From a virus, in IMG/VR virus record IMGVR_UViG_3300011116_000416, positions 21,615 to 85,614 of that record: DNA of 64,000 nt, one strand, 5' to 3'. Positions 9,262 to 40,300 of this stretch are shown here, piece by piece. The notes beneath the pieces were generated by a model that saw only the letters and a program-made list of their open reading frames with translations, was not told the DNA's origin and made no database searches. How positions within the stretch are numbered: position 1 is the stretch's first letter; every line of letters starts with the position of its first letter. Both the position numbers and the translations under genes were made by a program.

Positions 9262-9306
9262 GGGGTTCTCCTAGTCAGAGGCATCTGACAAGACTATTAT
9301 ACCATT

Positions 9307-9471: not shown

Positions 9472-9496
9472 GTTGCTCCATGACTTTATTATATCA

Positions 9497-11293
9497 TTAC
9501 ATTATATTAATGTTGAACTGTTTGAAATAGGCATCCAAGTCTTTTTGTTCTGGTCTATTTCTTTCAATGATTGAACGCTTATCCCATTCGTGCATATCTT
9601 CAACTTTTCTATCCCTAAAGGTATGTATTTCTACCATTTGATTTTGGTTTCTAGGTGTGTGAGATATTGCACCAAAAATTGCACCACAGACAGCATCTGC
9701 CAAGTCTTTTGATGATTTACGAGGGTGGTCAACACGATTACCCTTCATAATCTTAAGTTCTGTTAGTTCGTGAAATAGCAGTTCGATTGCTGGCATTACT
9801 AGACGCTCTTCATAAATAAGCATAGCCATATCTTCATAGTGCTTCTTTGCAACAGAAACAGTTTCGGTACGAATACCCACAGACTTTAGCTCATTCTGGA
9901 TATCAAATGACTGCCAGCGGTCAAAGCTTACCATACCGATATCAAAGCCCAGCCTACGCAGATTTTGAATCCATTGCTTCACTTCTGATAGGTTTACTGG
10001 ACCTTCAATGCGTGGCTCCCACCATACTACTGCATCTACTACTACGATAGGCATTACTTGTGAGTAGTCTTTAACTACCTGGACATTTACCCATTTTTCA
10101 ACGTGAGCAATAGCAACCGCACACTTGTCGTGCTTTTGTGCAAGGTCAGCATGGACAAAGTATTTCTTTTCTGGGTCAGGCTTAAAGGATTCTATAAAAC
10201 TCTTGTTTGTGTCAATTGGATTTACGACAGTCATACAGGCACGAACCTTGTCCTGTTGCTTGAAAAATGCGTCAGACATGTATGTTGGAATACAGGCAAA
10301 ACGCTGCATAGCATCGCCAAGGTCTGTATAAAAGGCTAGTTTAAAATCATCGATTTTACGAGTAGGATTGACCACCCATGTTGGTCTTTTAATGGCAAAC
10401 ATTCCTGGAAACTTGTAGGATAGAATATTGTCTTCTTCCCACTCAATCTCAAGGCTGTTGCCCTCAGCATCTTCGGGTAGGTCTGGATTCATAATAAACT
10501 TATGTTTCTTTACTATGACTTCTTTGTCTGCAATTACCTCGTCATATCTAGTCGAAATAAAGTCTCCAGGGTATCTAGGAAAGGATAGTAGGGCAACTTT
10601 GCCTAAATCTGGAAAACGGCTGTCTACGGAGGCACGGAAGGCTTTATAGATGTTGTCTGCGGTCTTTCCCTGCTCGTTTCCTGTGCCCACCTCTTGTGCA
10701 AAACCAGAAATCTCGTCCAGTACTGCCAAGATAAGGTTAAGACCCTCGTGAGACTCACGTTCTGAGTGACCAGAATAAACAGTAATAGCTTTATTAAACT
10801 CAATGCTGTCTACCTTGGCATAGTATTTACCAGCAAACCATGGGGACTTTTCTACCTTAGTTTTAAAGCCTTTAAAAAACACGTTCTTAGCCTGTTGTGC
10901 GTTAATAGCGATGTTAATAATATCGATGGCATCTCCAGATGGTTTGCCAAAATAGCGAGCAGGGTCTTTCAAACAAAGGAGTTTATAGACCACATAGCAA
11001 CAAGCCACAGTAGATACAAAGTCTTTACCAGAACCCTTACCAAGCTGTAGGATAACCTCATTCTTTGTGTATTTTGCATAATGCTTGCGACCAGCATCAT
11101 CACCCATTACCTCAATTAATTCTTCCAGTTTATAGATTTGGCTCATAGCCTCTACAATGTCATACTGAATATCTGATAGCCCTGGCTGACCCAAAAAGTC
11201 TTCGCCTTCAACAAATGTCTTTACGTCTACTGGCTTTTCTTCGAATACGTTACTCTTAAGTACCTCAATGAAATCATTGAACATCATGGACAA
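9497..11293 (-). CDS. terL: terminase large subunit
   Basis: Walker A GKGSGKD, Walker B AVLDE, nuclease HADLA...D and KDLADA motifs. Confidence 0.9.
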   Translation of the reverse strand: MSMMFNDFIEVLKSNVFEEKPVDVKTFVEGEDFLGQPGLSDIQYDIVEAMSQIYKLEELIEVMGDDAGRKHYAKYTKNEVILQLGKGSGKDFVSTVACCYVVYKLLCLKDPARYFGKPSGDAIDIINIAINAQQAKNVFFKGFKTKVEKSPWFAGKYYAKVDSIEFNKAITVYSGHSERESHEGLNLILAVLDEISGFAQEVGTGNEQGKTADNIYKAFRASVDSRFPDLGKVALLSFPRYPGDFISTRYDEVIADKEVIVKKHKFIMNPDLPEDAEGNSLEIEWEEDNILSYKFPGMFAIKRPTWVVNPTRKIDDFKLAFYTDLGDAMQRFACIPTYMSDAFFKQQDKVRACMTVVNPIDTNKSFIESFKPDPEKKYFVHADLAQKHDKCAVAIAHVEKWVNVQVVKDYSQVMPIVVVDAVVWWEPRIEGPVNLSEVKQWIQNLRRLGFDIGMVSFDRWQSFDIQNELKSVGIRTETVSVAKKHYEDMAMLIYEERLVMPAIELLFHELTELKIMKGNRVDHPRKSSKDLADAVCGAIFGAISHTPRNQNQMVEIHTFRDRKVEDMHEWDKRSIIERNRPEQKDLDAYFKQFNINIM

Positions 11294-26480: not shown

Positions 26481-29400
26481 TTACACTACCTCACTTACAT
26501 ATACTAGCATACTTAATCCAGTTTCGTTTTTGCTATGTTCAATTCCATATACAAGAAATTTTGAATTTGGGGATACTTCAAATACATCAGAGCCTGGATT
26601 TGTATAGTTAATTTGAACGATATCTCCCAGTTGCAAAATTGGTAAACCAAAAACATCTATACCCAATACTTGTCTTGGTTTTCTTAATTTATTAATTGTC
26701 CAATCCATAAGTCTATATGCTGTATCGTAGTTTTGAATATATGGTGAATCGATTGTAAACGATTTTGTTCCATATGTTAATCTACTATTTTTAATATCAG
26801 TATATTGCTTTTTGTAAGAGTTTGGGTCTTCTCCAAAATTAAGACCATCATTATAAGATAGGTCGCTTCTCTTAAGGTAGTATTCATCTACCGTTAAATC
26901 GTGAGTTGATTCTTGTGTAAACGCTATTCCTAGAATTCTTAAATAATTTCCAGATGTTGCGTCTAATGAAAGTGCAGAATCAGTAGCGTTAAATACTAAA
27001 AATTCTGCACCATATGGATTATCATTATATCCAGAAACAACGTATCCTCTTTCACCAGTAAATGTTGGTGCAATTTTAGAAAATAGTGCTGGATAAGCTT
27101 TTTCAAATCTAACATTAAAATAAGCCATCTCTCTCATAATTGTTCCAAATTCTTCATAGTATATTGTTGGTGCTGGTTTTCCAGTTGTTCTAATTCCGCT
27201 CAAAGCTGTTGATTGCAAAATTCCACTAAGAGCATATCTATTTGTAGAAATAGTTGCTGAAGATTCTCTAAAAATTGAATTAACTAATTTTATATCCTCT
27301 GTATTGTTGGCGGTTGTGTCTACTGCAAATACGTTTTCAAACATTACTTTTGAGGAACCACGAATAAACAAGCCAACATTTTGAACAAGAGGCAATGGAG
27401 AAGTATCTTCTACTGTGTCGATAAGACTATTATTTAGGTATATATAAAATTTTCTGCGATTACCTACTGTGAGCTCTTGTTCTGCTTGAACCGATAGGTC
27501 GTATACCGTTGGGTTTTGTTCTGCAGATACCCTACCCTGACCCACAAACTGACCATCATCTGTAATGATTGACCTTAAAGAACTAGATAACAATATTGGT
27601 TTTAAGACACCGTTAGTTTTTTGTAACTTTGTGCTTGAAAGTGCAACATAATTGCCATTCTCTGTGGATGGTGATTGTCCAGTTAGTCTGACATAATCTC
27701 CAGCGGTAACTCCAGAAATTGCAGAAGATGCAGTAAAAATATCTCCGCTTAAACTTCCAGCAATATTATCTTTTGTTATTTCATAAGCCACTAGCTTATA
27801 AAATAAAACATTATAAATATCACTAGCAGATGTTATTCCTGTAAGAATTGGATTGCTGTCAGTTAATGCTATGATTTCATAGTAATATCCCTCTCCAGCT
27901 GCATTTGTGTAAAATGACATACCGCCAGACGAACCACCCAAAACCGTAGTTTTGTTTTTAGAATTTGTTAGAGAATATATGTCTATGCTTCCATTTGGAA
28001 ATTGTTTCGATGATGAAGATTCTTTATTTCCAATAATTCTCATTCTGGTTCCAAACGTATCGTATTTTGAGCCAGAAGATGTTAAATTTTTAGTGATTCT
28101 ATTAATTGATGCAGATGCAGAGCTATCTAAAACAAAGCCAGCTCCAGAGAATACCAAACTTGATGATTGCAACATATCTGTAGATGTGTCATATTTTTGT
28201 GTAGACATATTGTATTTTAGTGTAGATAAATAATTTTTAATTGCATAAGTTGCTGTGCCTAATTTTGTTAATGCAGACACATTTTCTGTTATGTTGGTAG
28301 ATTTTTCTTCATTAAACACGTTTGTATAGACACCAGTATTTTCGTTTTTCTTTACATTAAATAAAAACTGGTAGTCGTTCAGGGTTGATTTTATTGTAGA
28401 TGTTTGCCAATCTGTAATATTTGAACTTATTAAATGGTTGGTTATTGTTGTTCCAAATTGACCTCTACCGTGTTTTGCAACATCTCCTTCTTTTAACTTT
28501 CCATCTCTAGTCCATCTAGGTTCTGCATAAATTCTAACTTTTCCAGTCGGATACATTCTTCCACCTGCAGGTAAACTAGCAAAATATTTTTGATAATCTT
28601 CTGTACTTGTAATAAATACTTCATTGTTTAAATAAGCTGTTCCAGATGTGGTTATTGCTCCTGTTGTTGTAGTTTTAAACTTAAATTGTGTTAAATTTGG
28701 AACTGCTGTAATTGTTTGAACTCCACGATATCCAATAGGAACCACATCCATGATTACTATTTCATCCCCAACTTGCAAGTTATGATTTGCGGAAGCAGTA
28801 AAAGTAACTTCTCCAGCTACTGAAACTATGCTAGAGTTATTTGCTGGTGTAATTGATATTGGAGAATTTGGAGATGTTACGTTATATTGTATTGCATCAT
28901 ATTTTATAATTTCACCATTTGCATAGAAATATCCGTTATATCTACTCAGCCAGTAAACGCCATCCCCAAATTCAATGATATTGTTTACAATTTGTCCCTT
29001 ATTGTTTACCTGTGGTACTGAACTCCTTAATACTGCGTTTAACGGTACCGCACTTAAAACATAATTTGATTGAGTGGATAGCTCTTCATTAATGCTTTTG
29101 GTAGTTTGTTCTCCAGAAACTTCCCAAAGTAAAACTGGCTTATATCTCCAAATCCTATCTTTATCTAATTTACTTGCTTGTGTTAATGAACTTATAGATT
29201 TTTGAATATATCTATTTTTATAAATAACCTTACCATCATTAAAGATGTCTTTATTTTCACCTTTTAAATTTATTATATTTGCTTTAATTCCATTTGATAA
29301 ATCATCGCCATATAAAACTATGTTTGTGTCCCTAACATTGCTTGTTTCTGGAACCAAAAATTGTTTGCTCATACAAACAAAATTATTGTCCTCGTCAAAA

Positions 29401-31241
29401 AACATTGCTGTTTGCGTAGAAGTAGCTAGGTCATTTAAAACTTCCATTATTGTTTTGTCTGGTGGTACAAAAAAGTATGGAATAACTGGGTCATATTCCC
29501 CAAAAGCCCTTTTAAAAATATAATTTGTAAATCCAATATTATCTAGCAAAGTTGCTATAATTTTGCTTAGAGTTGCATTATTTAACATAATTCTAGGTGC
29601 TAAAATTGATTCGAAATAAAATGACAAATCTCTTAAATTAAAGGTTACTTCTCTATTTGCATTATCGTATTGAGGATATCCGTCTGTATACATTGTTTTA
29701 ACTGGTAGCATATAGTCTTTAAAACTTGACAAAACTGGAACAGATATCACAGACTCGTAAAACTTAAGTTGTAAATTTTTACTTGCAAAGGTAAATTGTA
29801 ATTCATCTCCTGCATACTTATTTAATATACTAAATTTATTATTTTGATTAAATGCCTGGCTAAAATCAAATAGACTCATTTGTCCAGTTGAAGCTAAAAG
29901 CTGCCCTACTGGAAGGCTTGTCAAGCCGATGTCTGAAGCCATTTTCTTTATTGAATACGACACTACAATATCTGAAATGTCTGCTGTTAATCTTGGAGAA
30001 AGCTCAATCAGGTCAAAGGTTGTATTGACGTTCTTCATTTTTGTTACAGAAAGTCTTAATCCATCGACATAATCGAACTGTCTATATACCCTTGTAGAGT
30101 TAGACATGTAATAATCTACTTTATCTGTTCTATCTTCGGTATCTGTTTTTGGAACTATAAAATCTGTTACATATTGCTGTGTGTTTGTAACAGTTTGTGT
30201 ATTCTTATACCATCCATAGTTAGGAACAACCTGCTCCCAAGAATCTCCATCCCAAATATGTAAAGTTCCAATGCTTTGGTTTGTTGCCTTTAATAAATAT
30301 GCAAAGCCCTTTTCTTTGTCGGATAGATTTGGCAACACAAAATTAGAAGAAACATTATCAATTAATTTAAAATTATTAGTGTATGCAACTGGAATATTTG
30401 TAATTCCATAAGATAATTCTAGATATCCATCTGTTGGAAAATCATCGCCTCCGTTATAAACTGTTGTCCAGGTTGTACCAACCAACTTTTCTAGCTTCCA
30501 TTCAACTGGGGTTGATTTATAATTTGTTGCAGAGCCAGACCAAAATGGGTCATTCGTTCCATCTGGCTTAAGGTCTAGTTTAATATCTCCGACATTTGTT
30601 TGAACCTTAATTACGACTCTATTTGCTGGAATTGAATTTTTATATTTAACAAATGGTGCAACATCTTCAATAAGAAATTCACCAGACTTATTGTAAGAAA
30701 GACCAACAATTTCGGTATCACTTGGTTTAGATAATGATGTTATTCTTCTATAGGAAGACCAGTATTTAAATATATCATCTTTTCCAGCAACATAATATCT
30801 TGGTCTAGAATAAGTTGTTTCATTTGTTGGTGGTATTTTGTTATTAGCATCAAATCTTAACTTATTAATTCCAGAACGTGGTCTAAATCTAGTAAAACAT
30901 GACTCTAGTGACATGAGTAATTTTTGCTGGTCATTTTGCTTTAAGAAAATGGCTGGGGTACTACCATCTTCTTCATAGCCACCATCTATCACTGTATCAT
31001 AGTCTGTTCCACCATAATATCTTGGACTTGTTGTGTTTTCATCCTCTAAAACAAAAGTTGTTGGTAATGTGGCATATGTTGAAACATATCTAGAACTAGC
31101 TGTATCATGTCTATAAAAATAATTACCAATAACATCCAGATTTTCAAATATGTTTAGATTCCATTCGGCAATTATTTTACTTTTTAATTCTACAACACTA
31201 GATGTTTGCAGATGATTTGTTAAATCACTATCTGTATACAT
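26481..31241 (-). CDS. large tail-tip / hub protein
   Basis: About 1586 aa, second gene after TMP; C-terminal LQLGDIV.I.Y motif; start by TAATG overlap. Confidence 0.7.
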   Translation of the reverse strand: MYTDSDLTNHLQTSSVVELKSKIIAEWNLNIFENLDVIGNYFYRHDTASSRYVSTYATLPTTFVLEDENTTSPRYYGGTDYDTVIDGGYEEDGSTPAIFLKQNDQQKLLMSLESCFTRFRPRSGINKLRFDANNKIPPTNETTYSRPRYYVAGKDDIFKYWSSYRRITSLSKPSDTEIVGLSYNKSGEFLIEDVAPFVKYKNSIPANRVVIKVQTNVGDIKLDLKPDGTNDPFWSGSATNYKSTPVEWKLEKLVGTTWTTVYNGGDDFPTDGYLELSYGITNIPVAYTNNFKLIDNVSSNFVLPNLSDKEKGFAYLLKATNQSIGTLHIWDGDSWEQVVPNYGWYKNTQTVTNTQQYVTDFIVPKTDTEDRTDKVDYYMSNSTRVYRQFDYVDGLRLSVTKMKNVNTTFDLIELSPRLTADISDIVVSYSIKKMASDIGLTSLPVGQLLASTGQMSLFDFSQAFNQNNKFSILNKYAGDELQFTFASKNLQLKFYESVISVPVLSSFKDYMLPVKTMYTDGYPQYDNANREVTFNLRDLSFYFESILAPRIMLNNATLSKIIATLLDNIGFTNYIFKRAFGEYDPVIPYFFVPPDKTIMEVLNDLATSTQTAMFFDEDNNFVCMSKQFLVPETSNVRDTNIVLYGDDLSNGIKANIINLKGENKDIFNDGKVIYKNRYIQKSISSLTQASKLDKDRIWRYKPVLLWEVSGEQTTKSINEELSTQSNYVLSAVPLNAVLRSSVPQVNNKGQIVNNIIEFGDGVYWLSRYNGYFYANGEIIKYDAIQYNVTSPNSPISITPANNSSIVSVAGEVTFTASANHNLQVGDEIVIMDVVPIGYRGVQTITAVPNLTQFKFKTTTTGAITTSGTAYLNNEVFITSTEDYQKYFASLPAGGRMYPTGKVRIYAEPRWTRDGKLKEGDVAKHGRGQFGTTITNHLISSNITDWQTSTIKSTLNDYQFLFNVKKNENTGVYTNVFNEEKSTNITENVSALTKLGTATYAIKNYLSTLKYNMSTQKYDTSTDMLQSSSLVFSGAGFVLDSSASASINRITKNLTSSGSKYDTFGTRMRIIGNKESSSSKQFPNGSIDIYSLTNSKNKTTVLGGSSGGMSFYTNAAGEGYYYEIIALTDSNPILTGITSASDIYNVLFYKLVAYEITKDNIAGSLSGDIFTASSAISGVTAGDYVRLTGQSPSTENGNYVALSSTKLQKTNGVLKPILLSSSLRSIITDDGQFVGQGRVSAEQNPTVYDLSVQAEQELTVGNRRKFYIYLNNSLIDTVEDTSPLPLVQNVGLFIRGSSKVMFENVFAVDTTANNTEDIKLVNSIFRESSATISTNRYALSGILQSTALSGIRTTGKPAPTIYYEEFGTIMREMAYFNVRFEKAYPALFSKIAPTFTGERGYVVSGYNDNPYGAEFLVFNATDSALSLDATSGNYLRILGIAFTQESTHDLTVDEYYLKRSDLSYNDGLNFGEDPNSYKKQYTDIKNSRLTYGTKSFTIDSPYIQNYDTAYRLMDWTINKLRKPRQVLGIDVFGLPILQLGDIVQINYTNPGSDVFEVSPNSKFLVYGIEHSKNETGLSMLVYVSEVV

Positions 31242-31876
31242 TATGCCTCCTCTAGTGTCATTTGTATATTCCACATATCGTAATTTGTTCTACCACGTTT
31301 TTCTACGGACCATGTGAAATTTGTTATATACATTTCCAATCTTTCATTATATTGTGTTAGTTTTGTAAAAGATGATGCATCTTTATCTCCACTAACACCA
31401 GCAACAGGAAATTCTGCATAATTGTCATATGCTAAAAAGACCCAAAAGGTTCCATAATGATTGTTGTACCAATCTAAAAGTTCTACTCCACCTGCTCCAC
31501 CATCAACTGTATATTCATCTACCGTGCTAGTTGGTGCACCTGTTGTTGTATTAAAATTAGGGTCTGAGCTATATGCTCTAGATGGTAGCATTTGCCAGCT
31601 AACAGAGAGCTGTCTTTTATCGGCTACCCAATAAGAACGCATACGACCGTTAACCATACGCTGACGATTTTCAATTCTTTGAACGTTAAAATCTAAAGCA
31701 CTTCTGTTATGGTCAGAAAGTATTAAAAAATCTCCATTATTATTTGAGGCGTTTCCTATTTCAAGACCATCTGGAACATAAATACCATTATCAATAGAGC
31801 CAGAACTTTCTGAAAACAGAATAGCTTGAGGTCTTGGGTAGGACTTTCTACCATTGATATATCCTGAAGTAGCCAT
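31241..31876 (-). CDS. distal-tail-like protein
   Basis: Directly after TMP; R..NGRMR....DK...SW..LP motif; ends TLEEA. Confidence 0.65.
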   Translation of the reverse strand: MATSGYINGRKSYPRPQAILFSESSGSIDNGIYVPDGLEIGNASNNNGDFLILSDHNRSALDFNVQRIENRQRMVNGRMRSYWVADKRQLSVSWQMLPSRAYSSDPNFNTTTGAPTSTVDEYTVDGGAGGVELLDWYNNHYGTFWVFLAYDNYAEFPVAGVSGDKDASSFTKLTQYNERLEMYITNFTWSVEKRGRTNYDMWNIQMTLEEA

Positions 31877-34800
31877 TAGATAGTGTTGCCCCTAACTCTC
31901 ATATTGTCAATACGTCTAATTTGTGTCAGAACTGCCTGAGCAATTGTGTCAGGGTTAGAATCAGAACGAACATTGACGTTTATACTATAATTATACACTG
32001 AATCGCCTATGCTTGCTCCATTATTAATACTTCCTAATTTAGCGGCACCTATTCTGTCTACCGCTGACTTCTTAATTACAAATTCTCCTGGGGTAAGCAT
32101 AGCAGGAACAATATCGGTTCCACGAGCAGCCCCACCAAATGCAAAGTATGAGACTAAACCACCTTTAGCAAATGGTTTTCTGGCATATCCAGCAAAACTT
32201 CCAGACCCAAGAGTCTTAGTTAAATCCGCATATTCTAATGCATTTAGCATTTCTTGTAAATCTTGTTTTGTATATTTCTTTCCACCAACAGTTACAGTTG
32301 CACCAGCAAGCTCTGCTTCTCTAGCTGCATTAATTCCAGCCCTTTGGTCTTCAAGTGCGGACTGGGCATTCTGTGCCCTAATTCCAGTAACAATTCCAGC
32401 AGCAGCAGAAATATCTCCACGAGACAAAGCATCCGCAAGGTCAAGCTGTCCTCTTTGCTGTTGAGCAATCTTGTCGTTAGCTTTCTGAATCTCGTCTAAT
32501 TTCTTTAGCCTTGCATCATATTTCTTATTAATGGCATCTTCTTGTTTACCTAACAATGTCATGGCTGCATTTAATCTAGACTGTTTTTTGATTGCAATAT
32601 CTTGAGCAATTTCTGCTGGAGTTTTTTGCTGTTCTAAAGAATCTGTAATTGCATCCATAATTTCGGAAATTGCATTTGTAAGACTATTTCTTGTCCATTG
32701 TTTTGCTGCTTCTTGTACTCTAGGACTTGCACCAGCCAATTTACCCTTGCCACTAAGAATATCGGCTTGGCTCTTAGTTACTTCAATTCCAAGCGAAGAT
32801 GCCTTGATAATCAAAAGTTTATCGTTTATGTCTTTTAGCCCCTGAACAGTTGTTTTAATACTACTTGGAAGATTGTTTACCGCAATGTTTAATAGCTTTA
32901 TTGCAACGCTTTTATCTTTTATGTTATTTAATTTTTCTCCCAGGTTATCAAACTGTGCATTAAAGGCTTTGATGTCTAAAGTGCCTTCTTTAAATTGACT
33001 AGAAAAACCTTTAAGCATAGTCGATAGATTAGCACCAGTTGTATATAATGCCTTGTCAGTTTTTAACTGCTCTGGTGTTCTTTGATTGTTTCCAAAATTA
33101 TACCGACCAAAGTCCTGAGCCTTTGTTCCATAATATCCAGTTTGACCAGATACTGGTTTCGGCATATTTGCTGCCACAATTTTTTCTGCAGTAGATATTT
33201 GATAACCTATATTTTCCTGAACTGCCTTATTGGTTATCTTATTTACATCAAATGCTATATTTGACTTTCCAGAAGATTGCCTTAAAGCATTCATAACTGT
33301 TTGAATCATGTCATCTTTAAATCCCTTGCCTCTTAAGCCTACGGTTAATGATGTCATTAAATTTCTTGTTTCTTCTGCTGTTGCTTTTTTAAGTGCGTCT
33401 ATTGTTGAGCCAAATTCTTTTTTAAATTCTGGTAACCCCAACAGAGCCGCTGTAGATTGCATTTGTCCTACATCTTTAGTTAATCCTGCAGATATTTTAG
33501 CTGTTTCAAGCGGTGATTTTTCATTTGGAGCTATGCCAAAAAAGTCACCCAAAGTTTTTATTTTTTTACTTGTTAGAGTTGCAGCATTTCCTAAGTCATG
33601 TATTGCCTTATACTCCTTTTTCTTTCTCTCCTGCTCTTGATTATATAAAAGTGTTAATCCACCTACCGCTAAAGCTAATCCACCAAAAACTGGTAATAAT
33701 GGAGTTATTGCTGGCAATAAAGCACCAAATCCACTGATTAAGTTTGGGAACATTGATGTAAGTGTTGACATTAACATTACTGGTCCAGCAGCTTGTCCAG
33801 CAATTTGTCCAACTGGACCAGGCATCATAGAAGCCATACCAACAGTAGAGCTAAGACCAAATCCAACACCCATAACTCTATTTCTATCTATTTTCTGCAA
33901 TCCTGCGGACGCTCTTCCTACTCCACTATTTAATGCATAATTAAATCTGGATTTAAATCTTTCTAGTCTTGTTCCCTGTCTAGGACCTTGTAGAATACCG
34001 CCTTGTCCATCAAAATCGGTAGCAAACATTCCAGGAATATATTTTGTTCCAGACGAAGCAGCAATACCATTACGCATACCCTGTGTAGCTGCTGCACCTA
34101 GCTGTTCACCAGTAATAACAGCTTCTTTAATTTTTTTCTTTGCACCAGCGTTAAGACTTTGTCCATAGTTCTGTCCAATTGCATCAGCTTCCCTTGATGG
34201 AGAAGCCATTCTAGTGCTCTTCTTAAATCCTTTTTGAACTCCTTCTTTAGCACTAGCTTGAACCTGCTGAATTATATTTGTGGCAGCAGCTTCTACTATT
34301 GCTTCAACTTCATATGCAAACTTTCCTCTGGAAGCTCCACTACCAGCACCCATCCAAGGTCCCATGAGTTGTACAAGCCTTGCCTGTCTTCTTACATCTC
34401 CTGTTCTTCTTGCAAATCTTTCTGGAGTATATATTTCTGATGTACCAGTTGCCATGGCTCTAGTTGCAAATTTAATTCTGTCTTCTGCTGAAGTTGTTCC
34501 AGAAAAACTTGTAACATTTTTGCCATATGGATTTATAACAGATGGGGTAAGATATGCCAATGCAGATTTTCTTGACAATTCTGAACCAGTAAGACCTTGA
34601 GTCCTAAGTGCTGCAATCTTTTTATCTTGTTCTGTCAGAAGTCTTTCTGCCTCTATTCTTGCTTTTTCTACAGACAAACCTTGTTTTGAAATTAATGATG
34701 CTTCTAATGCTTCTTTTGCTGTTTTTCTTGCAAAAGCAACTCTTTCATTATCTGCATTTGCCACGTCAGCCAGGGCTTTTGAAGCAACTGTCCCCCTATT

Positions 34801-37800
34801 CGACAATTCTTTTAATGCAGAAACTTCTTCTTCTCTAGCCTTAATTTCTCCATTTTTAATTTTTAGCAATCTTTCATCGGCTAACTTCCCTTGCTCAGAT
34901 GATGCTTCTAATGTTGATGCCCTACCCTTGATTCCCAAAGGATTATATGCCATATTAATATTTGCTGCTTCTGGAATAGTTGTACCACCATAAAGTCTTC
35001 CAGTTCCAAATAATGTGCCATATCCTTGTTTAATTGTCTCTAATAAGGTCATATGTCTTTGACGTGCTTCGGTAATTCCCTTTGCACCCTGTTTTATTTC
35101 ATAAACCATTACTTTAGCTTCTGCGATTTCAGGCGATAGGTCTATCATTTCTGATAAAGTTGATGATAAACTTTCTGCTTGTAAAATATCTAAATGTGAA
35201 GCTTGTGCACGAGTTGGGTCATTCGGTCCTTTAATTTTAAGACCTGCAGTTCCTTTTGCAAATTTAGGTAGACTATCTGCAATCATTCCCTTGACAATAC
35301 CAGAATATTTCTGTGCCTGTTTAGCAGGAATAATAGCTTCGCCATTTGATACCATAGCTAAGATAGAGTCTGAAGTGCCTGAGCCTGGACCAGAAATTAT
35401 TCCACCATTAGCAAGATAGTTGTGTTTTGACGTAAACATCTTTCCTAATTCTCTAGAAGATGTTCCAAGGTCAAAAACCGATATGTTTTCTAAACCATTT
35501 TCTTTTAGAAGCTTTTGAACCTCTACTATTTTTGCAGCTGTTCTTTCTGGGAAGTCATTAGAAATACCAATTCTTTCAACATCCTGTATACTAAATCCGC
35601 CTGGCAAATGTGCTTCAATATATGGAATTGCACCCATCTTGCTATCTTTGTATATTGACTTACTGGCTTTCAATGTTTTTGCAAGAGAAGACTTGTTTGT
35701 TTGGAATAATTTCCTAACTAATGGAACTTTCTTGCCAAGTTTTAATGCCTGTTCCCAAATTGTTAGTGTATCTCCAAATGATATAGATGCTCTTGCTAGT
35801 GCTTCTGGTTTTAAGAATAACGTGTTTTCTCCATATTTTCTTAATGCCACGCTTTGAGGATTAATTAGTCTAAGGAACTCTTCCTCAATTCTTTGCTCTG
35901 GAGTAAGTGGGTCGTGGGTGCCAAAGGAGTCTTTTTTCAGTTGTGTTGGCGTTCCACCCTGATACAGGGTTCCATAATAAGTTGGTACCATTTCTTTACT
36001 TGTCAAGAATCCATAAACTGGTCGCTGACCAGCACCAGAACCAACTGGAACACCCATTGTTGCTTTTTCAATAAGGGCTCGCTGTGACTGAGTGTCCTGT
36101 GCTGAACTTCTTACACCATGGAACAAACTCTTATATTGACCTTCTTGAATAAACTGACCTAAAGCATCACCACGCATCTTAAAAGCAAGCGTTGGTGTTC
36201 TACTTGCAGCAGCCTTGCCACCAAAAAGTTGGAAAAGACTTCTTGCATTTGCCATTGCGGTATTAATAACTCCACCAGCAGCAAATCTAGGAAGATTATC
36301 CATAATCATGTTCTGAATTAAACCAGAATATTTTGCTGTCTGTTTTGCTGGAATAACTGCTTCACCATTAGAAAGCATTGCTGGAATTGAATCTGATGTT
36401 CCTGTGCCAGGACCTCTAACAATACCACCCTTAGCAAATGCCTTTCTCTTGGTACCATCTCCAGATACGATTGGTCCCATAAATGCTCGTTGTGCTGCAA
36501 TAGAACGACCGTAGGCTGCTGTTAGTTGGTCAACTGCTTTTGCTTCTACTGTAAATCTTTGCTGCAGTTTAGAGTGTACCTGTTCAAGAGATGCTCCTAC
36601 TGCTGCCGCCTCAATTTGCTTAGTTGTCATATACTTTGTTTGAGAACCAAGGTCAAGAGATGACTTTCCTGTTCTGTTAAAGAAGTCTTTTAGATTAGCA
36701 AATAGCTTAATTAAGTTTGCCACACCGTTAGCAATTAGACCAAATGTCATTAGCAAGACTGGACCTAATCCACCAACACCAGCAACTAGAATCATTGCAA
36801 AGTTTTTAACGGAATCTGGAAGATTATTGAAAGCATTAAGTATCTTGGTAATTCCATCAATAATTGGTGTAACTACCTTCATAAACTGCTCACCAATTGG
36901 AGCCATAGCAGCCTGTAGCTTGGCAACACTTTCCTGGAACTTATACATGGTGGACTCTTGCATCTTTTCCATTTCTTTTTGAGAGATGTATGCAAGTTGC
37001 TGTGGTGTTCTTGCTGCAAGCTCCATTACCCTATTTGCTTGGCTATTTTCATCTGCCACGTTCTTGAACAATGTGGATAGACGAGAGAACTGGAACTTAC
37101 CAAACATCTGCTCAATAGCACGAGCACGGTTTAGAGGGTCTAGAGTGTCAAGTGCAGATGCAAAGTTAAGAACTGTTTGCTTTAGATTTCCTTGGTCCTT
37201 TTCTACGATAGCATTGATGTCAATACCCATCTGCTTCATCATTGCACTCGTTTTAGCTGTTGGGTTAATCAAGGATGCCAGACCAGACTTTAAGGCGTTA
37301 GCACCCTCTGAAGCGTTAACACCACCTTCTTTCATAGCAGTTAGGAAGAACGTTAAGTCTTCTACATCTCCACCAAGCTGTCTAACTACTGGAGCAGCCT
37401 TTGGAATTGCAATTGTTAGGTCTTCAATCGATGTAATGGTTTGGTTTTCTACTGCGTTTAGGAAGTCTATTTTCTTTGTTAGGTCTTCCGCAGAAATACC
37501 AAATGCGTCAACCAAAGAGATTGTTGTTTGAAGTGCTTGCTGTTGGTCAATAGCACCTAGAGTTGCAAGCTTATTTGCCTGTGTTACCTGTGCTAATAGT
37601 TTTGCACCTGTAGCACCAGTGGCAGCAGCGGTAGCAGCCATATCCATGGTATCTTGAACAGTAAGTCCAAACTTGGTAAATTCCATAGCAATCTTTTTGA
37701 TATCATTGAATACCTTGTTTGTTTCTTCTGTTGTTGTAAACATGTCTCCATAGACACGCTTAAACTTGATTGCTGCTTTTTCCATTTCCATGAATGATTT

Positions 37801-38430
37801 TGCAGCCGCTGTACCAGCCATTGTTAGAGGTACGGTAAAACCAACCATAAGCTGACGACCAGCCCATTGTGTGTTTTTACCAAAGTTTAGAAGATTTGTA
37901 GAGCCTTGTTTTAAAAGCTGATTTAATAGTTGCTGTCTTTGTGCTGCAATCTGTGTTTTAGTAGATAAATTCTCCATGTCGAGAATTAAGGGTCTTACCT
38001 TAATTGCTCGCATTGCACCATTTGCATCACGACCAAGTTTGATGTATTGGGTTTGTAGGTCTTTTACTCTTTCACGAGCAACCTTGTTTATTGTTTCAAA
38101 CTCTGTTTTAAAGAATCTTCCAAAAGACCTGGATGATGCACCAGCATATCTAAAATATTCTCCAAGAGAAAGTTTATTCTTTTCAAGTGAATCTGTGAAC
38201 TGTTCAGCAGATGATTTTACTGTTGTCATGCTAGCAGCAAATTTGTTGGTAGCATTAATAGAGTTTATTAAGTTTTGCTGTAGATTTCTTGCTTCCGCTG
38301 CGGCTTGAGCACCGCCTTTGGACATTTGGGTGTGGAAGGCTGAGATTTGAGTCTGAAGTTGCTTGATACTAGCCAATGCAGCACTAGTATCAATATTAAC
38401 TTTAATATTGGACTGAATTTCGTCAGCCAT
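31876..38430 (-). CDS. tape measure protein with an internal enzyme-like cassette
   Basis: 2184 aa; TP901-type core (G..ASEGANALKS.L..L), hydrophobic segments, three FAxGG..D.(I/V).AM...GE motifs. Confidence 0.93.
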   Translation of the reverse strand: MADEIQSNIKVNIDTSAALASIKQLQTQISAFHTQMSKGGAQAAAEARNLQQNLINSINATNKFAASMTTVKSSAEQFTDSLEKNKLSLGEYFRYAGASSRSFGRFFKTEFETINKVARERVKDLQTQYIKLGRDANGAMRAIKVRPLILDMENLSTKTQIAAQRQQLLNQLLKQGSTNLLNFGKNTQWAGRQLMVGFTVPLTMAGTAAAKSFMEMEKAAIKFKRVYGDMFTTTEETNKVFNDIKKIAMEFTKFGLTVQDTMDMAATAAATGATGAKLLAQVTQANKLATLGAIDQQQALQTTISLVDAFGISAEDLTKKIDFLNAVENQTITSIEDLTIAIPKAAPVVRQLGGDVEDLTFFLTAMKEGGVNASEGANALKSGLASLINPTAKTSAMMKQMGIDINAIVEKDQGNLKQTVLNFASALDTLDPLNRARAIEQMFGKFQFSRLSTLFKNVADENSQANRVMELAARTPQQLAYISQKEMEKMQESTMYKFQESVAKLQAAMAPIGEQFMKVVTPIIDGITKILNAFNNLPDSVKNFAMILVAGVGGLGPVLLMTFGLIANGVANLIKLFANLKDFFNRTGKSSLDLGSQTKYMTTKQIEAAAVGASLEQVHSKLQQRFTVEAKAVDQLTAAYGRSIAAQRAFMGPIVSGDGTKRKAFAKGGIVRGPGTGTSDSIPAMLSNGEAVIPAKQTAKYSGLIQNMIMDNLPRFAAGGVINTAMANARSLFQLFGGKAAASRTPTLAFKMRGDALGQFIQEGQYKSLFHGVRSSAQDTQSQRALIEKATMGVPVGSGAGQRPVYGFLTSKEMVPTYYGTLYQGGTPTQLKKDSFGTHDPLTPEQRIEEEFLRLINPQSVALRKYGENTLFLKPEALARASISFGDTLTIWEQALKLGKKVPLVRKLFQTNKSSLAKTLKASKSIYKDSKMGAIPYIEAHLPGGFSIQDVERIGISNDFPERTAAKIVEVQKLLKENGLENISVFDLGTSSRELGKMFTSKHNYLANGGIISGPGSGTSDSILAMVSNGEAIIPAKQAQKYSGIVKGMIADSLPKFAKGTAGLKIKGPNDPTRAQASHLDILQAESLSSTLSEMIDLSPEIAEAKVMVYEIKQGAKGITEARQRHMTLLETIKQGYGTLFGTGRLYGGTTIPEAANINMAYNPLGIKGRASTLEASSEQGKLADERLLKIKNGEIKAREEEVSALKELSNRGTVASKALADVANADNERVAFARKTAKEALEASLISKQGLSVEKARIEAERLLTEQDKKIAALRTQGLTGSELSRKSALAYLTPSVINPYGKNVTSFSGTTSAEDRIKFATRAMATGTSEIYTPERFARRTGDVRRQARLVQLMGPWMGAGSGASRGKFAYEVEAIVEAAATNIIQQVQASAKEGVQKGFKKSTRMASPSREADAIGQNYGQSLNAGAKKKIKEAVITGEQLGAAATQGMRNGIAASSGTKYIPGMFATDFDGQGGILQGPRQGTRLERFKSRFNYALNSGVGRASAGLQKIDRNRVMGVGFGLSSTVGMASMMPGPVGQIAGQAAGPVMLMSTLTSMFPNLISGFGALLPAITPLLPVFGGLALAVGGLTLLYNQEQERKKKEYKAIHDLGNAATLTSKKIKTLGDFFGIAPNEKSPLETAKISAGLTKDVGQMQSTAALLGLPEFKKEFGSTIDALKKATAEETRNLMTSLTVGLRGKGFKDDMIQTVMNALRQSSGKSNIAFDVNKITNKAVQENIGYQISTAEKIVAANMPKPVSGQTGYYGTKAQDFGRYNFGNNQRTPEQLKTDKALYTTGANLSTMLKGFSSQFKEGTLDIKAFNAQFDNLGEKLNNIKDKSVAIKLLNIAVNNLPSSIKTTVQGLKDINDKLLIIKASSLGIEVTKSQADILSGKGKLAGASPRVQEAAKQWTRNSLTNAISEIMDAITDSLEQQKTPAEIAQDIAIKKQSRLNAAMTLLGKQEDAINKKYDARLKKLDEIQKANDKIAQQQRGQLDLADALSRGDISAAAGIVTGIRAQNAQSALEDQRAGINAAREAELAGATVTVGGKKYTKQDLQEMLNALEYADLTKTLGSGSFAGYARKPFAKGGLVSYFAFGGAARGTDIVPAMLTPGEFVIKKSAVDRIGAAKLGSINNGASIGDSVYNYSINVNVRSDSNPDTIAQAVLTQIRRIDNMRVRGNTI

Positions 38431-38449: not shown

Positions 38450-38767
38450 TTAAATATTACCAAGAAGCGATGTGCCTGACAAATCAATGCCAGATGCTTC
38501 GTTGATAATCTTATAAACCATCGGAAGATTCAAGATTTCTTCCAGGTCAACCTCTTTTTCCAAGAGCTTTGGCTCATATTGTTTTAGTGCAATTTTCACA
38601 CACTCTACAAGCAAAGCCAAAGATTTTTCGTTGTCTTCAGCGACCGCAGAGATTTCATCAAACTTCTTCATAAATTCACGAAGAAGAGAAATCTTCAGTG
38701 GTCTAACTGTGATGGATGTTCCATCAAGTAGTTCTACTGTTGTTGCTTCATTAACAGTTACTGCCAT
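38450..38767 (-). CDS. tail assembly chaperone, short form
   Basis: Between tail tube and TMP; paralogous to the N-terminal half of 38815..39522; AAGGAGG SD. Confidence 0.75.
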   Translation of the reverse strand: MAVTVNEATTVELLDGTSITVRPLKISLLREFMKKFDEISAVAEDNEKSLALLVECVKIALKQYEPKLLEKEVDLEEILNLPMVYKIINEASGIDLSGTSLLGNI

Positions 38768-38814
38768 TATTCCTCCTTTTAAGGTCTTATTAAATTATAA
38801 CATAAATAAGGCTT

Positions 38815-39522
38815 TTATTCTGTCATTACTTCGTAATCAAGTCCCATGCCTATACCAAATCCAAGCTGTTGTGCTCTTACTCCCTGTAGTGCTGTTACAT
38901 CATTAGGATTGCCATCACCAATACCGCTTAATTTTGCCGAAACTCTTGCTTTCATTGCTTCCCAAGGGTCTTCTTGAGCCTTTCCGCTAGCTTCATCAAG
39001 GTCTATGCCTTTTAGTGATGCTGTAAATTTTTTATCTTGATAATCTGATTCTCGTTTAGATTCTAATGTTGCAAATAATTCTGCTAATGATAATGACTTT
39101 TCTAGTTCTTCATAATCCTTCCAAATTCCCAACAAGAATATTTCTGATTCTAACTTTGCTAAATCCAGGGTATCCCAAGTACTTTTACTTTTAGAATCAC
39201 TGTCTATATTATTATTCTCTTTTGAGCCATTTTCGTCAGTTGTAAATTTAATACCAGAACAATATTCAATCAGATTATACATATTCTTCATGTCTAGCGA
39301 ATCTTCTAGCTGTTCTTTGGTTTTTATTATTGGGTAATATTGAGCCATAGCAATTAGGGAGCATTCAATGAGTACATCCAATGGGTCTTCTGTGGTTGGT
39401 TTATCTAATTCGTCAAACTTGTCCATAAACTGCCTTAGATAGTATATCTTTAGTGGACCTATCAAAAGGGCTGTGCCATCAATCAGCTCTATGTACTTTG
39501 TTTCATATATTTTTGTGCTCAT
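38815..39522 (-). CDS. tail assembly chaperone, long form
   Basis: N-half matches the short form; C-half W..LDLA.LE.E.FLLG.WK.Y.ELE is GT-like. Confidence 0.7.
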   Translation of the reverse strand: MSTKIYETKYIELIDGTALLIGPLKIYYLRQFMDKFDELDKPTTEDPLDVLIECSLIAMAQYYPIIKTKEQLEDSLDMKNMYNLIEYCSGIKFTTDENGSKENNNIDSDSKSKSTWDTLDLAKLESEIFLLGIWKDYEELEKSLSLAELFATLESKRESDYQDKKFTASLKGIDLDEASGKAQEDPWEAMKARVSAKLSGIGDGNPNDVTALQGVRAQQLGFGIGMGLDYEVMTE

Positions 39523-39592: not shown

Positions 39593-40300
39593 TTAGTAGG
39601 TGCGGTCGATAATCTTTCCGTAAGCACCAGAGTCATCTGGTAGAAGGCGGAACTCTACATCGAACATGCTTGCAGCATCACGCTTTGCAGAAACAGTTAC
39701 AGAGCTAATCGAGATAACTCGATATGCAATGTATACACGCTCTGTCTGGTCTGTTGTACCAGCACCAGAAGCAAACGCTGCCTGTGGTCCAGGACCAACA
39801 GCAACCAAGCTTCTTTCTACTGGGTAATCACCCAAGTCACCAGAAGTAAGGTCGATGTATCTACCCTGAGAAGTTGAACCTTCTGTCCACGATGGAACAG
39901 TTACAGTTACAACAGTTCCGCTTGCAGTTGCACCAGTTGTGTAGCTGTTTACGGAACCCTTCTGACCGATAGAAATTAGAAGATTTTCTAATGTTGCCTC
40001 GGCAAAAGATGTTCTCAGAGTTACTGTCATTCCAGACTTGAAAAGCTTTGCTACGTCTAGAAGCTGGTCCACCATTACATCACCAAATGTTGGGTTAAAT
40101 GTAATGTCAACACCATTGCTTGTGTAGCCAACGTTAGTTACGTTAGCTGAGTTTGTACAGATATCCTTGTAAGAAACACCGTTAGTAAAAGCTGGCTGGT
40201 TAGTAGTTGATGTACTAGTCCAAGTTTTATCTGGTTTCGACAAGAATAGAGCAGCAGCACCAACGATGATGTTGGCGTTTGTACCTCTTGAATATGCCAT
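39593..40300 (-). CDS. major tail tube protein
   Basis: NIIVGAA.L, VGYT..G, VDQLLD, AEATLENL, FRLLPD..YGKI.DR; own promoter and terminator. Confidence 0.85.
   Translation of the reverse strand: MAYSRGTNANIIVGAAALFLSKPDKTWTSTSTTNQPAFTNGVSYKDICTNSANVTNVGYTSNGVDITFNPTFGDVMVDQLLDVAKLFKSGMTVTLRTSFAEATLENLLISIGQKGSVNSYTTGATASGTVVTVTVPSWTEGSTSQGRYIDLTSGDLGDYPVERSLVAVGPGPQAAFASGAGTTDQTERVYIAYRVISISSVTVSAKRDAASMFDVEFRLLPDDSGAYGKIIDRTY

Follow-up and report, generated by a model that had tools for sequence, protein, structure and literature searches.

Introduction

Tape measure proteins (TMPs) of siphophages are known as rulers, with the length of the protein setting the length of the tail, as channel formers and as carriers of cell-wall enzymes; some of those of mycobacteriophages carry Rpf-like and peptidase motifs. 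Host-modifying enzymes delivered by the virion are known mainly from the heads of myoviruses (T4 Alt, MuF fusions). To our knowledge, SopF-type ADP-ribosyltransferases have so far been characterised only as animal-cell effectors.

T4 Alt and the MuF-VIP2 fusions are, according to the passages cited, packed in the virion and delivered together with the DNA (PMC9503650, PMC7302621; see also PMC5576092), and the MuF polymorphic toxins are described there as variable effector domains on a conserved structural scaffold, an organization that recurs in the locus presented here. These enzymes are carried in the head by MuF or portal-associated proteins and are members of Alt/VIP2-type ADP-ribosyltransferase (ART) families, whereas our locus holds a predicted SopF-type domain as an internal cassette of a tail TMP, bracketed by repeats. 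The words "tape" and "SopF" are absent from a 2022 survey of viral NAD+/ADP-ribose systems. A comparable concentration of functions is seen in the polyvalent proteins, which in the sections cited are large virion polypeptides with several predicted early effector domains (Iyer et al. 2017, PMC5512222). A processing metallopeptidase is typical of them, whereas none was found by Pfam (E<=1) in our protein, whose scaffold is a TMP with defined repeat-bounded slots; the term "tape measure" does not occur in the text of that paper. Finally, the peptidase of T5 pb2 is an example of a TMP with an enzyme acting on the host at entry, and the T5 TMP carboxypeptidase is mentioned in the cited part of the JBD30 paper. 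However, the TMP enzymes of T5 and of mycobacteriophages attack peptidoglycan outside the membrane, while the cassettes considered here are predicted to be NAD+- or nucleotide-using or phosphatase-type and would need cytoplasmic substrates.

DUF3626 is the domain of the Salmonella T3SS-1 effector SopF (PMC6682159). SopF is an ADP-ribosyltransferase with a catalytic "I-Y-E" triad, the structure 7DN9 is its NAD complex, and the protein requires an ARF GTPase, which is eukaryotic, as activator in order to modify Q124 of ATP6V0C of the V-ATPase; by the account cited, it is the sole characterised member of the family (PMC10333799). As both the ARF activator and the eukaryotic target are absent in bacteria, the activity of SopF is not simply transferable to a phage protein. 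In its animal pathogen SopF occurs as a free effector of 374 aa (PMC6682159 and PMC10333799, in the parts cited) that is pushed into the target cell by an injection machine, as is predicted for our domain. The latter, in contrast, forms part of a phage TMP, has a subfamily insertion of ~50 aa, gives no direct Pfam match, and would act on a bacterial target with no ARF required.

TMPs are released ahead of the DNA, as the cited portions of two papers describe (PMC13033339, PMC11445458). In the relevant part of the JBD30 paper, TMP residues 1022-1066 are predicted to form a hook that anchors the protein in the baseplate once the C-terminal domain has been released, cleavage at residue 1066 is speculated upon, and the TMPs of some phages are described as processed, with T5 as the example. 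The anchoring and cleavage role of the hook in JBD30 is itself a prediction.

Results

Tape measure gene and its surroundings

The window, which is the whole stretch of 64,000 nucleotides that we analysed (IMG/VR record IMGVR_UViG_3300011116_000416, positions 21,615 to 85,614), contains a long gene within a tail gene neighbourhood:

39593-40300, minus strand: Ig-domain protein, major tail protein candidate (phrog_2175, E 1.2e-31; phrog_885, major tail protein, E 3.3e-4)
38450-39522, minus strand: two genes upstream of the TMP gene, in the tail chaperone position; the N-termini of both match phrog_10504
31876-38430, minus strand: TMP gene (P0001), a single ORF of 2184 aa with PF10145, TIGR01760 and PHROG matches
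36439-38430, minus strand: constant N-terminal region of the TMP, aa 1-664
36697-36810, minus strand: hydrophobic stretch 1, aa 541-578 (Kyte-Doolittle, 19-aa window, >=1.5)
33640-33741, minus strand: hydrophobic stretch 2, aa 1564-1597 (Kyte-Doolittle)
31879-34230, minus strand: C-terminal part of the TMP, aa 1401-2184, the last ~220 aa constant
26481-31876, minus strand: tail genes downstream of the TMP gene, one of 211 aa that takes the distal tail position and one for a minor tail protein of 1597 aa (phrog_1194; phrog_10359, E 1.9e-55)

The 2184-aa ORF is a TMP of the TP901 type. PF10145 matches aa 252-444 (E 1.7e-24, 87.3 bits against a cut-off of 33.2), TIGR01760 matches aa 200-557 (E 1e-30, 107 bits against a cut-off of 28.8), and the best of the PHROG tape measure families reaches E 5.7e-96. 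The protein has two hydrophobic stretches and shares a motif with the TMP chains of Douge and JBD30, which are resolved in tail tips, and its gene is flanked by tail chaperone and distal and minor tail genes, the chaperone and distal tail calls being positional. Within the whole TMP, Pfam at E<=1 gave PF10145 only, with no processing peptidase or metallopeptidase domain and no DUF3626. No Rfam match was found on either strand between 31000 and 39000.

Motif copies and the slots that they border

A block of about 55 aa had been noted twice inside this protein, with a third, diverged copy near the C-terminus. Both observations hold, and the copies together with the segments that they delimit can now be placed exactly; the C-terminal copy lies at 32074-32172, where ~32030-32170 had been given:

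36271-36438, minus strand: motif copy 1, aa 665-720, bounding slot 1 on the left
35416-36270, minus strand: slot 1 cassette, predicted DUF3626/SopF-like domain, aa 721-1005, 285 aa (profile searches, homologues)
35251-35415, minus strand: motif copy 2, aa 1006-1060, bounding slot 1 on the right and slot 2 on the left
34231-35244, minus strand: slot 2, variable segment, aa 1063-1400
32074-32172, minus strand: short C-terminal motif copy, aa 2087-2119 (BLASTP to copy 1)

The likeness among the copies is far above chance: copies 1 and 2 match by BLASTP with E 2e-21 (29/42 identical in the scored stretch), and copy 1 matches the C-terminal region with E 4e-6 (18/34 identical). At the DNA level copies 1 and 2 have a mean column identity of 85%, with many synonymous differences and no long identical stretch, therefore the duplication is old, and a recent tandem duplication is ruled out.

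The motif is a widespread TMP element. It matches residues 1018-1049 of the gp46 TMP of Pseudomonas phage JBD30 (8RK3, E 2.4e-7) and, twice, the TMP gp16 of mycobacteriophage Douge (8ZDO, residues 963-1028 and 1411-1450, E 6.9e-13), and it corresponds to the predicted JBD30/T5 hook and to the repeated element of Douge. Among cultured phages it was found in 1190 records at 1235 places, with TMP annotations in the rows listed. The position near the C-terminus that the preliminary description gave for the motif needs qualification, as the JBD30 copy lies ~110 residues before the C-terminus, within the predicted hook, and not at the very end. In cultured phages the motif is nearly always single, whereas here and in 74 of the 120 relatives listed there are two or three copies marking cassette borders.

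Relation of the slot 1 insert to DUF3626 and SopF

Between copies 1 and 2 a domain of ~270 aa had been described, with six ordered motifs taken to be those of DUF3626. The insert is present, at a length of 285 aa, and all six motifs are found in that order: YKSLF (766-770), R784..E788, RPVYGFL (803-809), YGENTLFLK (866-874), SISFGDT (882-888), and YIEAHLPGG (937-945) with DVERI (950-954). Neither the insert (aa 721-1005) nor the repeat-insert-repeat piece retrieved any Pfam family at E<=10, PF12294 included, an NCBIfam scan of the insert gave no match, and among PHROGs the insert matched only phrog_8314, an unnamed family (E 1.4e-6). In crude amino-acid composition the cassette could not be told apart from the helical parts of the TMP.

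The family assignment comes through the homologues. A phmmer search with the insert among 1.84 billion representatives gave 68 matches at E<=1e-3, and PF12294 was found in 36 of 40 short or mid-length homologues (best E 3.9e-25); of ten homologues scanned singly, six scored above the 27-bit gathering score of PF12294. Moreover, when the window subfamily was compared with 20 DUF3626-like proteins by hhalign, the probability was 99.5% (E 9.1e-23, 164 columns). The window subfamily has an insertion of ~50 aa between the RPVYGF and YG blocks which most family members lack. Four of the 40 homologues have an additional Phage_Mu_F domain and one has WXG100_2; these two domains are delivery scaffolds. 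In other phages DUF3626-like genes occupy virion-associated positions; in the lake phage DSL-LC01 such a gene lies directly after the portal gene.

A profile of 32 rows that includes the window insert (profile A3) matched the PDB chains of SopF (7dn8_C, E 4.5e-6; 7dn9_A, E 1.8e-4). The match spans only the C-terminal ~124 profile positions, and the N-terminal part of SopF lies outside it. Neither the single insert nor a 3-row subfamily profile retrieved SopF from the PDB at E<=10, thus the link is transitive, via distant homologues. A SAP54-like PDB match of the 3-row profile (E 0.0015) lies in the subfamily insertion and was treated as chance. In the A3 alignment the RP-V-Y, Y-G, D and Y-I-E blocks of the window align with RPIY, YG, D and YIE of SopF, so that RP-[IV]-Y, Y-G, D and Y-I-E are common to both; V805/Y806, Y866 and E939 align at the level of the RPIY, YG and YIE blocks. 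The glutamate of the last block is encoded as follows:

35614-35616, minus strand: codon of E939 (Y-I-E), aligned to a SopF residue that is Glu in 7DN8 (YIE) and Asp in 7DN9 (YID)

E939 is invariant in all 32 rows of profile A3. It is also one of eight positions, with R784, E788, Y806, G807, Y866, G867 and D887, that are invariant in all 48 TMP-embedded DUF3626-like copies, which have an overall identity of ~25%. The window copy keeps all 17 invariant or nearly invariant columns of the family. By profile, the slot 1 domain falls within the SopF/DUF3626 family. The DUF3626 assignment of the preliminary description is supported by the homologues in spite of the missing direct Pfam match, and its ART-like reading by the identity of DUF3626 with the SopF domain and by the match of a window-containing profile to 7DN8 and 7DN9.

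By tblastn the insert had no match in 50,697 cultured phage records, a pattern scan of viral contigs with the insert produced 17 candidate stretches of which none was confirmed, and PADLOC gave no match for the insert, two homologues or slot 2.

Cassette exchange among relatives

Among 8000 candidates scored, 4664 proteins belong to the TMP family at E<=1e-10; the slots were analysed in the 120 relatives listed, which range from 1659 to 3814 aa. All 120 align to the constant region (aa 1-664) with 61-87% identity, share the N-terminal 720 aa and have copy 1 before aa 700; at least two long copies are present in 74. Copy 2 aligns in about 106 and aa 1961-2184 in 105-115 of the 120. Slot contents were grouped with stricter clustering, as single-linkage merged nearly everything. 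A DUF3626-like domain occupies slot 1 in 19 of the 120 relatives, stands elsewhere in the TMP in 30 and is missing from 71, and the other slot contents comprise class B (37 slots), class C (15) and class D (3).

In the nearest relatives the identity is 75-97% until copy 1 ends, falls to 10-27% over the insert and is back at 82% with the first residue of copy 2. The flanks of the nearest relative are 87% identical, while its slot 1 module is unrelated and the breakpoints fall at the repeat edges. Compared with the relative P0070, the breakpoints coincide with the final residues of copy 1 and the first ones of copy 2, and further ones lie just past copy 2 and at aa ~1401, where the identity returns; in the relative P0007 both motif copies stand in tandem with nothing between them. 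Different modules fill the space between the repeats in most relatives, and unrelated domains are exchanged at a fixed position of a conserved scaffold, as in the MuF-type polymorphic toxins. The comparison supports the view that the repeat-bounded slot 1 holds interchangeable cassettes, and the earlier suggestion that the motif forms a cassette border agrees with the loss of identity at the end of copy 1 and its return at the start of copy 2.

The segment that had been left unassigned after copy 2 proved to be a second variable slot. It aligns in only 4-20 of the 120 relatives. Its identity to P0070 is 10-17%, but over 377 aa it reaches 64% to P0076, which pairs class B in slot 1 with a slot 2 of the window type. 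In the TMPs compared, slots 1 and 2 assort independently. Slot 2 has no Pfam or PDB match. The sibling cassettes include nucleotidyltransferase-like, HAD phosphatase and class B modules. Class C matches a cytidylyltransferase-like Pfam family weakly (E 0.0085, below the cut-off), and in the nearest relatives the class B cassette matched nothing in Pfam or the PDB. By eye only, class B has a kinase-like look (VFIKP, AEMR, DKDLGAGNL).

Source and assembly

Contigs of a river metagenome from a separate study cover 35015-35884, 35864-36185 and 36165-36586 with 0 differences and bridge both junctions. An assembly chimera is ruled out by these identical independent contigs, and the repeat-cassette-repeat arrangement is accordingly no assembly artefact. 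The phage and its variants are present in river and lake metagenomes of several studies.

The source is an uncultured siphophage of freshwater whose host is probably an actinobacterium, as judged only from the nearest cultured phages, which infect actinobacteria. Of 240 TMP matches among cultured phages, 231 belong to phages of Streptomyces, Gordonia, Rhodococcus, Tsukamurella or Nocardia, at <30% identity; the capsid protein is ~40% identical to capsid proteins of Streptomyces phages, and megablast of the TMP gene returned only matches of 44-56 bases, to TMPs of Streptomyces phages. Pfam found replication and virion genes among 53 ORFs of the window and no host marker among the 25 families listed out of 39, and a scan of genome contigs with the N-terminal region confirmed 0 of 506 candidate stretches, yielding no prophage or host.

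Discussion

Our data point to a TMP that carries exchangeable cassettes, and we consider it on balance probable that the one in slot 1 is a SopF-type ADP-ribosyltransferase that leaves with the TMP towards the host, and that the motif copies are the borders of exchange. The domain would most likely be an active, NAD+-using ADP-ribosyltransferase that is synthesised within the TMP and kept in the tail lumen, presumably in an unfolded or extended state. Once the tail tip opens it would exit together with the TMP, and therefore a ready-made host-modifying enzyme would be at or in the cell before phage gene expression. The 55-aa copies would be paralogues of the baseplate-anchoring hook predicted for JBD30/T5 and would serve as conserved borders for cassette exchange by recombination between related phages. 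NAD+ is cytoplasmic, and the domain would have to enter the cytoplasm for such activity. The folded 32-kDa domains of a trimer would hardly find room next to one another in the lumen of the tail tube, so storage and refolding are a difficulty for this mechanism.

A wider interpretation, which we put forward tentatively and regard as possible rather than probable, is that the TMP of this abundant freshwater phage lineage is a polymorphic effector platform, comparable in phages to the polymorphic toxins. Its cassettes (SopF-type ADP-ribosyltransferase, kinase-like, nucleotidyltransferase-like, HAD phosphatase and others) would be shuffled combinatorially among co-occurring phages, and the hook copies would be points both of recombination and of anchoring or processing, at which a cassette is released or brought into position while the TMP passes through the envelope. 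At the site of membrane entry, the SopF-type enzyme would act on a host membrane or cytoplasmic protein, before phage gene expression; by analogy with the proteolipid target of SopF, one candidate would be the c-ring of ATP synthase.

One would argue that the same origin and delivery could go with another chemistry, for example that of an NAD+ glycohydrolase or of a transferase whose substrate is nucleic acid, a small molecule or part of the envelope, with a role in NAD+ depletion control or anti-defence instead of protein ADP-ribosylation. The evidence reaches the family and not the substrate, ART-fold NADases occur among bacterial toxins (cited part of PMC13285283), and bacterial-side DUF3626 members must work differently from SopF because its activator and target are eukaryotic (PMC10333799, passages cited). 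However, that same source describes the one characterised member as a protein ADP-ribosyltransferase, positive evidence for a different substrate is lacking, and PADLOC gave no link to known defence systems, so we hold this reading to be rather unlikely. It is still less likely that the cassette works in the producing cell or on the virion, modifying proteins late or being trimmed off during tail assembly. Processing of some phage TMPs (T5, according to the cited part of the JBD30 paper) and the awkward fit of a folded 285-aa domain in the tail lumen would agree with it, but a late enzyme needs no fusion to a TMP, and the Phage_Mu_F fusions of the four homologues and the post-portal gene of DSL-LC01 point to carriage in the virion. 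Furthermore, several unrelated enzyme-like modules occupy the slot, and such a pattern is that of delivered effectors.

The eukaryotic target of SopF brings to mind a "Trojan horse" toxin that would strike the V-ATPase of protists grazing on infected cells or virions. An anti-grazer role of this kind was reportedly proposed for a phage-borne ADP-ribosylating toxin in a 2017 ISME J paper on freshwater actinophages. The habitat in river and lake water fits, as does the modification of Q124 of ATP6V0C with the help of ARF GTPases (PMC10333799, in the part cited). Yet a domain embedded in a TMP has no obvious route to a eukaryotic cytosol, its nucleotidyltransferase-like, HAD phosphatase and class B siblings are unlike anti-eukaryote toxins, and the N-terminal part of SopF is outside the match; we find this improbable. 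The faintest chance is left to an inert spacer or decayed domain, contributing ruler length only or persisting as a relic without catalysis. TMP length sets tail length, and the relatives do vary from 1659 to 3814 aa, but neither the invariance of eight positions, the Y-I-E Glu among them, in 48/48 copies of ~25% identity nor the retention of all 17 family columns by the window copy is in line with such a role.

What is new is a predicted SopF-type domain in a defined, repeat-bounded slot of a TMP, and in both slots phages with flanks of up to 87% identity have enzyme-like modules unrelated to one another. Our literature search, judged partly from titles and the starts of abstracts, found no paper on a SopF-type cassette between TMP repeats. 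If the cargo has activity and gets into the cell, as in the mechanism that we prefer, pre-made effectors would have a second general route in the TMP, the function of bacterial-side DUF3626 would become testable, and there would be genuine recent domain shuffling in TMPs, of which a 2023 survey of phage protein mosaicism could, in the portion cited, confirm no case (PMC10684548). In the metagenomic runs, where stretches without contig cover (run X4) were given no meaning, contigs diverge inside copy 1, and their pile-up on the copy 1 bin exceeds that on the neighbouring bins in all four sequencing runs.

The tape measure protein and its repeats

A siphophage tape measure protein (TMP) of 2184 aa is encoded on the minus strand, the strand that carries all long ORFs of the 85.6-kb IMG/VR virus record from which the window is taken. 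Residues 252-444 match PF10145 in Pfam (E 1.7e-24), residues 200-557 match TIGR01760 in NCBIfam (E 1e-30), and many PHROG tape measure families are matched as well (best E 5.7e-96). Every string quoted in the preliminary description was located in the translated TMP, and the six motifs of the insert follow one another in the order given there.

Features of the TMP gene and its surroundings
31876-38430, minus strand: TMP gene, single open frame, 2184 aa
36271-36438, minus strand: motif copy 1, aa 665-720
35416-36270, minus strand: insert (cassette of slot 1), aa 721-1005, 285 aa
35251-35415, minus strand: motif copy 2, aa 1006-1060
32074-32172, minus strand: short C-terminal motif copy, aa 2087-2119
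38450-38767 and 38815-39522, minus strand: gene pair in the chaperone position, flanked by the tail tube candidate and the TMP gene
Upstream of the TMP gene: Ig-domain/major-tail candidate, on the basis of PHROG matches
Downstream of the TMP gene: 211-aa gene in the distal tail position
Downstream of the TMP gene: gene for a 1597-aa minor tail protein

Both genes in the chaperone position match phrog_10504 via their N-termini, and the C-terminal end of the longer one has a further match, to phrog_10474; duplication of a chaperone gene seems a better description of the pair than a frameshifted G/GT arrangement.

Copy 1 of the motif matches copy 2 with E 2e-21 and the C-terminal region with E 4e-6 (BLASTP). 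At the DNA level copies 1 and 2 are separated by many synonymous differences, therefore the duplication is old. Both junctions between repeat and insert are covered with 0 differences by river-metagenome contigs of a study separate from the possible source, and three further metagenome runs contain variants that are about 95-97% identical across the cassette. Two hydrophobic stretches of the TMP, aa 541-578 and aa 1564-1597, flank the cassette region, and the Pfam search of the TMP found no peptidase domain. A mechanical ORF listing also gives antisense ORFs inside the cassette, on the plus strand at 35639-35857 (72 aa) and 35893-36087 (64 aa); no Rfam family matches this region.

Profile links of the insert to DUF3626-like proteins and SopF

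As a single sequence the insert has no match in Pfam, NCBIfam or the PDB. Among 1.84 billion representatives, phmmer with the insert gave 68 matches at E<=1e-3 and 15 at E<=1e-30; the strong matches are mostly giant proteins of 2700-3600 aa and the weak ones are 170-700 aa long. PF12294 (DUF3626) is matched by 36 of the 40 scanned homologues of 170-700 aa (best E 3.9e-25), with Phage_Mu_F also present in four of the 40 and a WXG100-like domain in one. When ten homologues were scanned singly, six reached the Pfam gathering score and four missed it. The three-row alignment of the window's subfamily aligns in hhalign with 20 DUF3626-like proteins at 99.5% probability (E 9.1e-23, 164 columns). A 32-row family profile that includes the insert matches the PDB chains 7dn8_C (E 4.5e-6) and 7dn9_A (E 1.8e-4), which are chains of the Salmonella effector SopF with ARF1, plus NAD in 7DN9 (PMC10333799). 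The SopF match is confined to the C-terminal half, the narrow three-row profile does not reach SopF in the PDB, and an insertion of about 50 aa between the RPVYGF and YG blocks is a feature of the window's subfamily. These points, together with the failure of the Pfam model to detect the window's domain, argue against simply filing the insert under DUF3626.

SopF is described as an ADP-ribosyltransferase with an 'I-Y-E' triad, whose target is Q124 of ATP6V0C and which depends on ARF GTPases (PMC10333799); DUF3626 is placed at residues 178-338 of SopF (PMC6682159). In the alignment of profile and PDB chains the family blocks fall on RPIY, YG, D and YIE of SopF, and their counterparts in the window are R803-P-V-Y806, Y866-G867, D887 and Y937-I-E939. 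The 7DN9 chain has YID at the position of YIE in 7DN8, therefore that Glu is the residue altered for the NAD complex. All 17 of the 17 invariant or nearly invariant family columns are retained in the insert.

The domain is carried by 52 of 123 TMPs; 48 of these TMP-embedded copies were aligned to the family profile, the four carriers whose matches spanned more than 450 aa being left out. R784, E788, Y806, G807, Y866, G867, D887 and E939 are invariant in all 48, despite an overall identity to the window's copy of only about 25%. Conservation of this kind would not be maintained in a spacer or a relic.

Exchange of cassettes among related TMPs

Of 8000 candidates scored against the N-terminal 720 aa, 4664 proteins matched at E<=1e-10, and the best 120 of the 4664 were taken for mapping. 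These relatives are 61-87% identical over the N-terminal 720 aa and 1659-3814 aa long, and some have precomputed Pfam matches to acid phosphatase (PF03767), PF00459, LysM and others. Copy 1 lies before aa 700 in all 120, and at least two long copies are present in 74. The DUF3626-like domain occurs in 49 of the 120 (32-row profile, E<=0.01), in the first slot in 19 and further downstream in 30. By BLASTP to representative cassettes, the first slot holds a different module of class B (about 295-307 aa) in 37 relatives, of class C (173-187 aa) in 15 and of class D in three, while nine first slots match none of the representatives. The relative P0007 has two motif copies in tandem (aa 663-768) and an empty slot; its DUF3626-like domain lies far downstream, at aa 2465-2728. 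The proposal that related TMPs hold differing domains between the repeats is supported by classes B, C and D and the DUF3626-like domain.

For class C there is a weak match to a cytidylyltransferase-like family (E 0.0085). Neither class B nor class D matches a Pfam family, and class B has no PDB match either. By eye, the class B cassette (aa 721-1015 of the relative P0070; also in P0113 and P0127) contains the kinase-like blocks VFIKP, AEMR and DKDLGAGNL. In P0113 the same slot continues after class B with residues that include a DFDDT block; this protein has a precomputed PF03767 match.

The nearest relatives, P0070 and P0071, whose N-termini are 86-87% identical to the window's, hold class B. 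Identity to P0070 falls in both slots, the second being the stretch after copy 2 (aa 1063-1400).

Identity of the window's TMP to P0070 in 40-residue windows
aa 1-720, N-terminal region and copy 1: 75-97%
aa 721-1000, slot 1: 10-27%
aa 1001-1040, copy 2: 82%
about aa 1081-1400 (windows from aa 1081), slot 2: 10-17%
aa 1401 onward, C-terminal part: mostly 42-90%, with two lower windows of 15% and 40%

According to the alignment, two breakpoints coincide with the final residues of copy 1 and the first residues of copy 2; two more lie just past copy 2 and at a conserved TR-ASPS-EA block. Along the TMP, the number of the 120 relatives with a BLASTP match is 120 over aa 1-720, 37-59 over the cassette, about 106 at copy 2, 4-20 over slot 2 and 105-115 over roughly the final 220 aa. 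The relative P0076 combines class B in slot 1 with the window's slot 2 (64% identity over 377 aa), therefore slots 1 and 2 assort independently. In one related IMG/VR locus the DUF3626-like domain occupies aa 2240-2488 of a TMP of 3351 aa; the domain is absent from three other related IMG/VR loci. This mosaic pattern supports the earlier suggestion that the motif acts as a border for recombination.

The bin of copy 1 (36256-36474) has more contigs and a higher summed depth than both neighbouring bins in four of four metagenome runs, and several contigs match the window on one side of 36361-36410 and then run on unlike it, diverging within copy 1; the bin of copy 2 has no excess of contigs or depth in the same runs. 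The excess at copy 1 fits a conserved element common to co-occurring phages with different neighbours.

The motif in other phages and the proposed delivery

The motif was found in 1190 of 50,697 cultured phage records, at 1235 places, so that it is nearly always single in cultured phages. In the 1158-aa TMP of Pseudomonas phage JBD30 it matches residues 1018-1049; residues 1022-1066 of that protein are predicted to fold as a hook, made up of two helices plus a hairpin. This hook is likened to the one retaining the T5 TMP in the baseplate tube after the C-terminal domain is expelled, and cleavage at residue 1066 is speculated (PMC11445458). The TMP of mycobacteriophage Douge (gp16, chain S of 8ZDO/8ZDQ) is matched twice, at 963-1028 and 1411-1450 of 1699 aa. 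In the Douge baseplate only TMP residues 1658-1699 are resolved, and TMP release is proposed to gate genome ejection (PMC13033339). With its motif copies about 380 aa apart, the Douge TMP could serve as a laboratory model for the slot. Cleavage at the motif in the window's TMP, an idea borrowed from other phages, is speculation.

The tail lumen is filled by a TMP trimer, and the TMP exits first once the tip opens. The cassette would travel along with it, refold and, with NAD+ of the cytoplasm, modify a host molecule ahead of phage gene expression; speculatively, the flanking hydrophobic stretches might hold the cassette to a single side of the membrane. Difficulties for such delivery are how a 32-kDa domain would fit into the tail lumen when folded, how it would reach the cytoplasm, that no peptidase domain was found in the TMP, and that bacteria have neither the activator nor the target of SopF.

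Known kinds are wall enzymes embedded in TMPs, ARTs packed into heads, toxins fused to MuF, and polyvalent proteins. Judged from the open-access literature searched, a predicted SopF-type enzyme among several interchangeable, repeat-bounded TMP cassettes appears to be a new variant. The survey PMC9503650 mentions neither 'tape' nor 'SopF', and PMC5512222 does not mention 'tape measure'; in a 2023 study, genuine mosaicism of recent origin in TMPs could not be confirmed (PMC10684548).

Host, habitat and free DUF3626-like genes

About ten studies of rivers, lakes and other waters yielded metagenomes that contain the stretch. Among cultured phages, those closest in the TMP N-terminus infect actinobacteria (231 of 240 matching records, each below 30% identity), and the capsid protein is about 40% identical to that of 120-135-kb Streptomyces phages. 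An actinobacterial host is thus probable.

Free DUF3626-like genes occur in 50 cultured phage records, for example at the left ends of mycobacteriophages L5 and D29 and in Nodularia phages; among the 30 matches listed from these records none is a TMP-annotated feature. In cluster A mycobacteriophages the gene has a hypothetical annotation and sits some 1.5-2.1 kb in from the left end; in Actinomycetia phage DSL-LC01 from a lake (OQ999401.1) it lies directly after the portal gene, at 8254-9654.

One of the 53 window ORFs matches Mtd_N, the N-terminal domain of the major tropism determinant (E 8.7e-12), which hints at a target of a diversity-generating retroelement. The Pfam tally of the window also contains a DnaE-type Pol III alpha (PHP, finger and HHH domains), RecA, DnaB, a primase, a B12-type ribonucleotide reductase, Hsp20, a ferritin-like protein, two GT2 glycosyltransferases, an M23 peptidase and a prohead protease.
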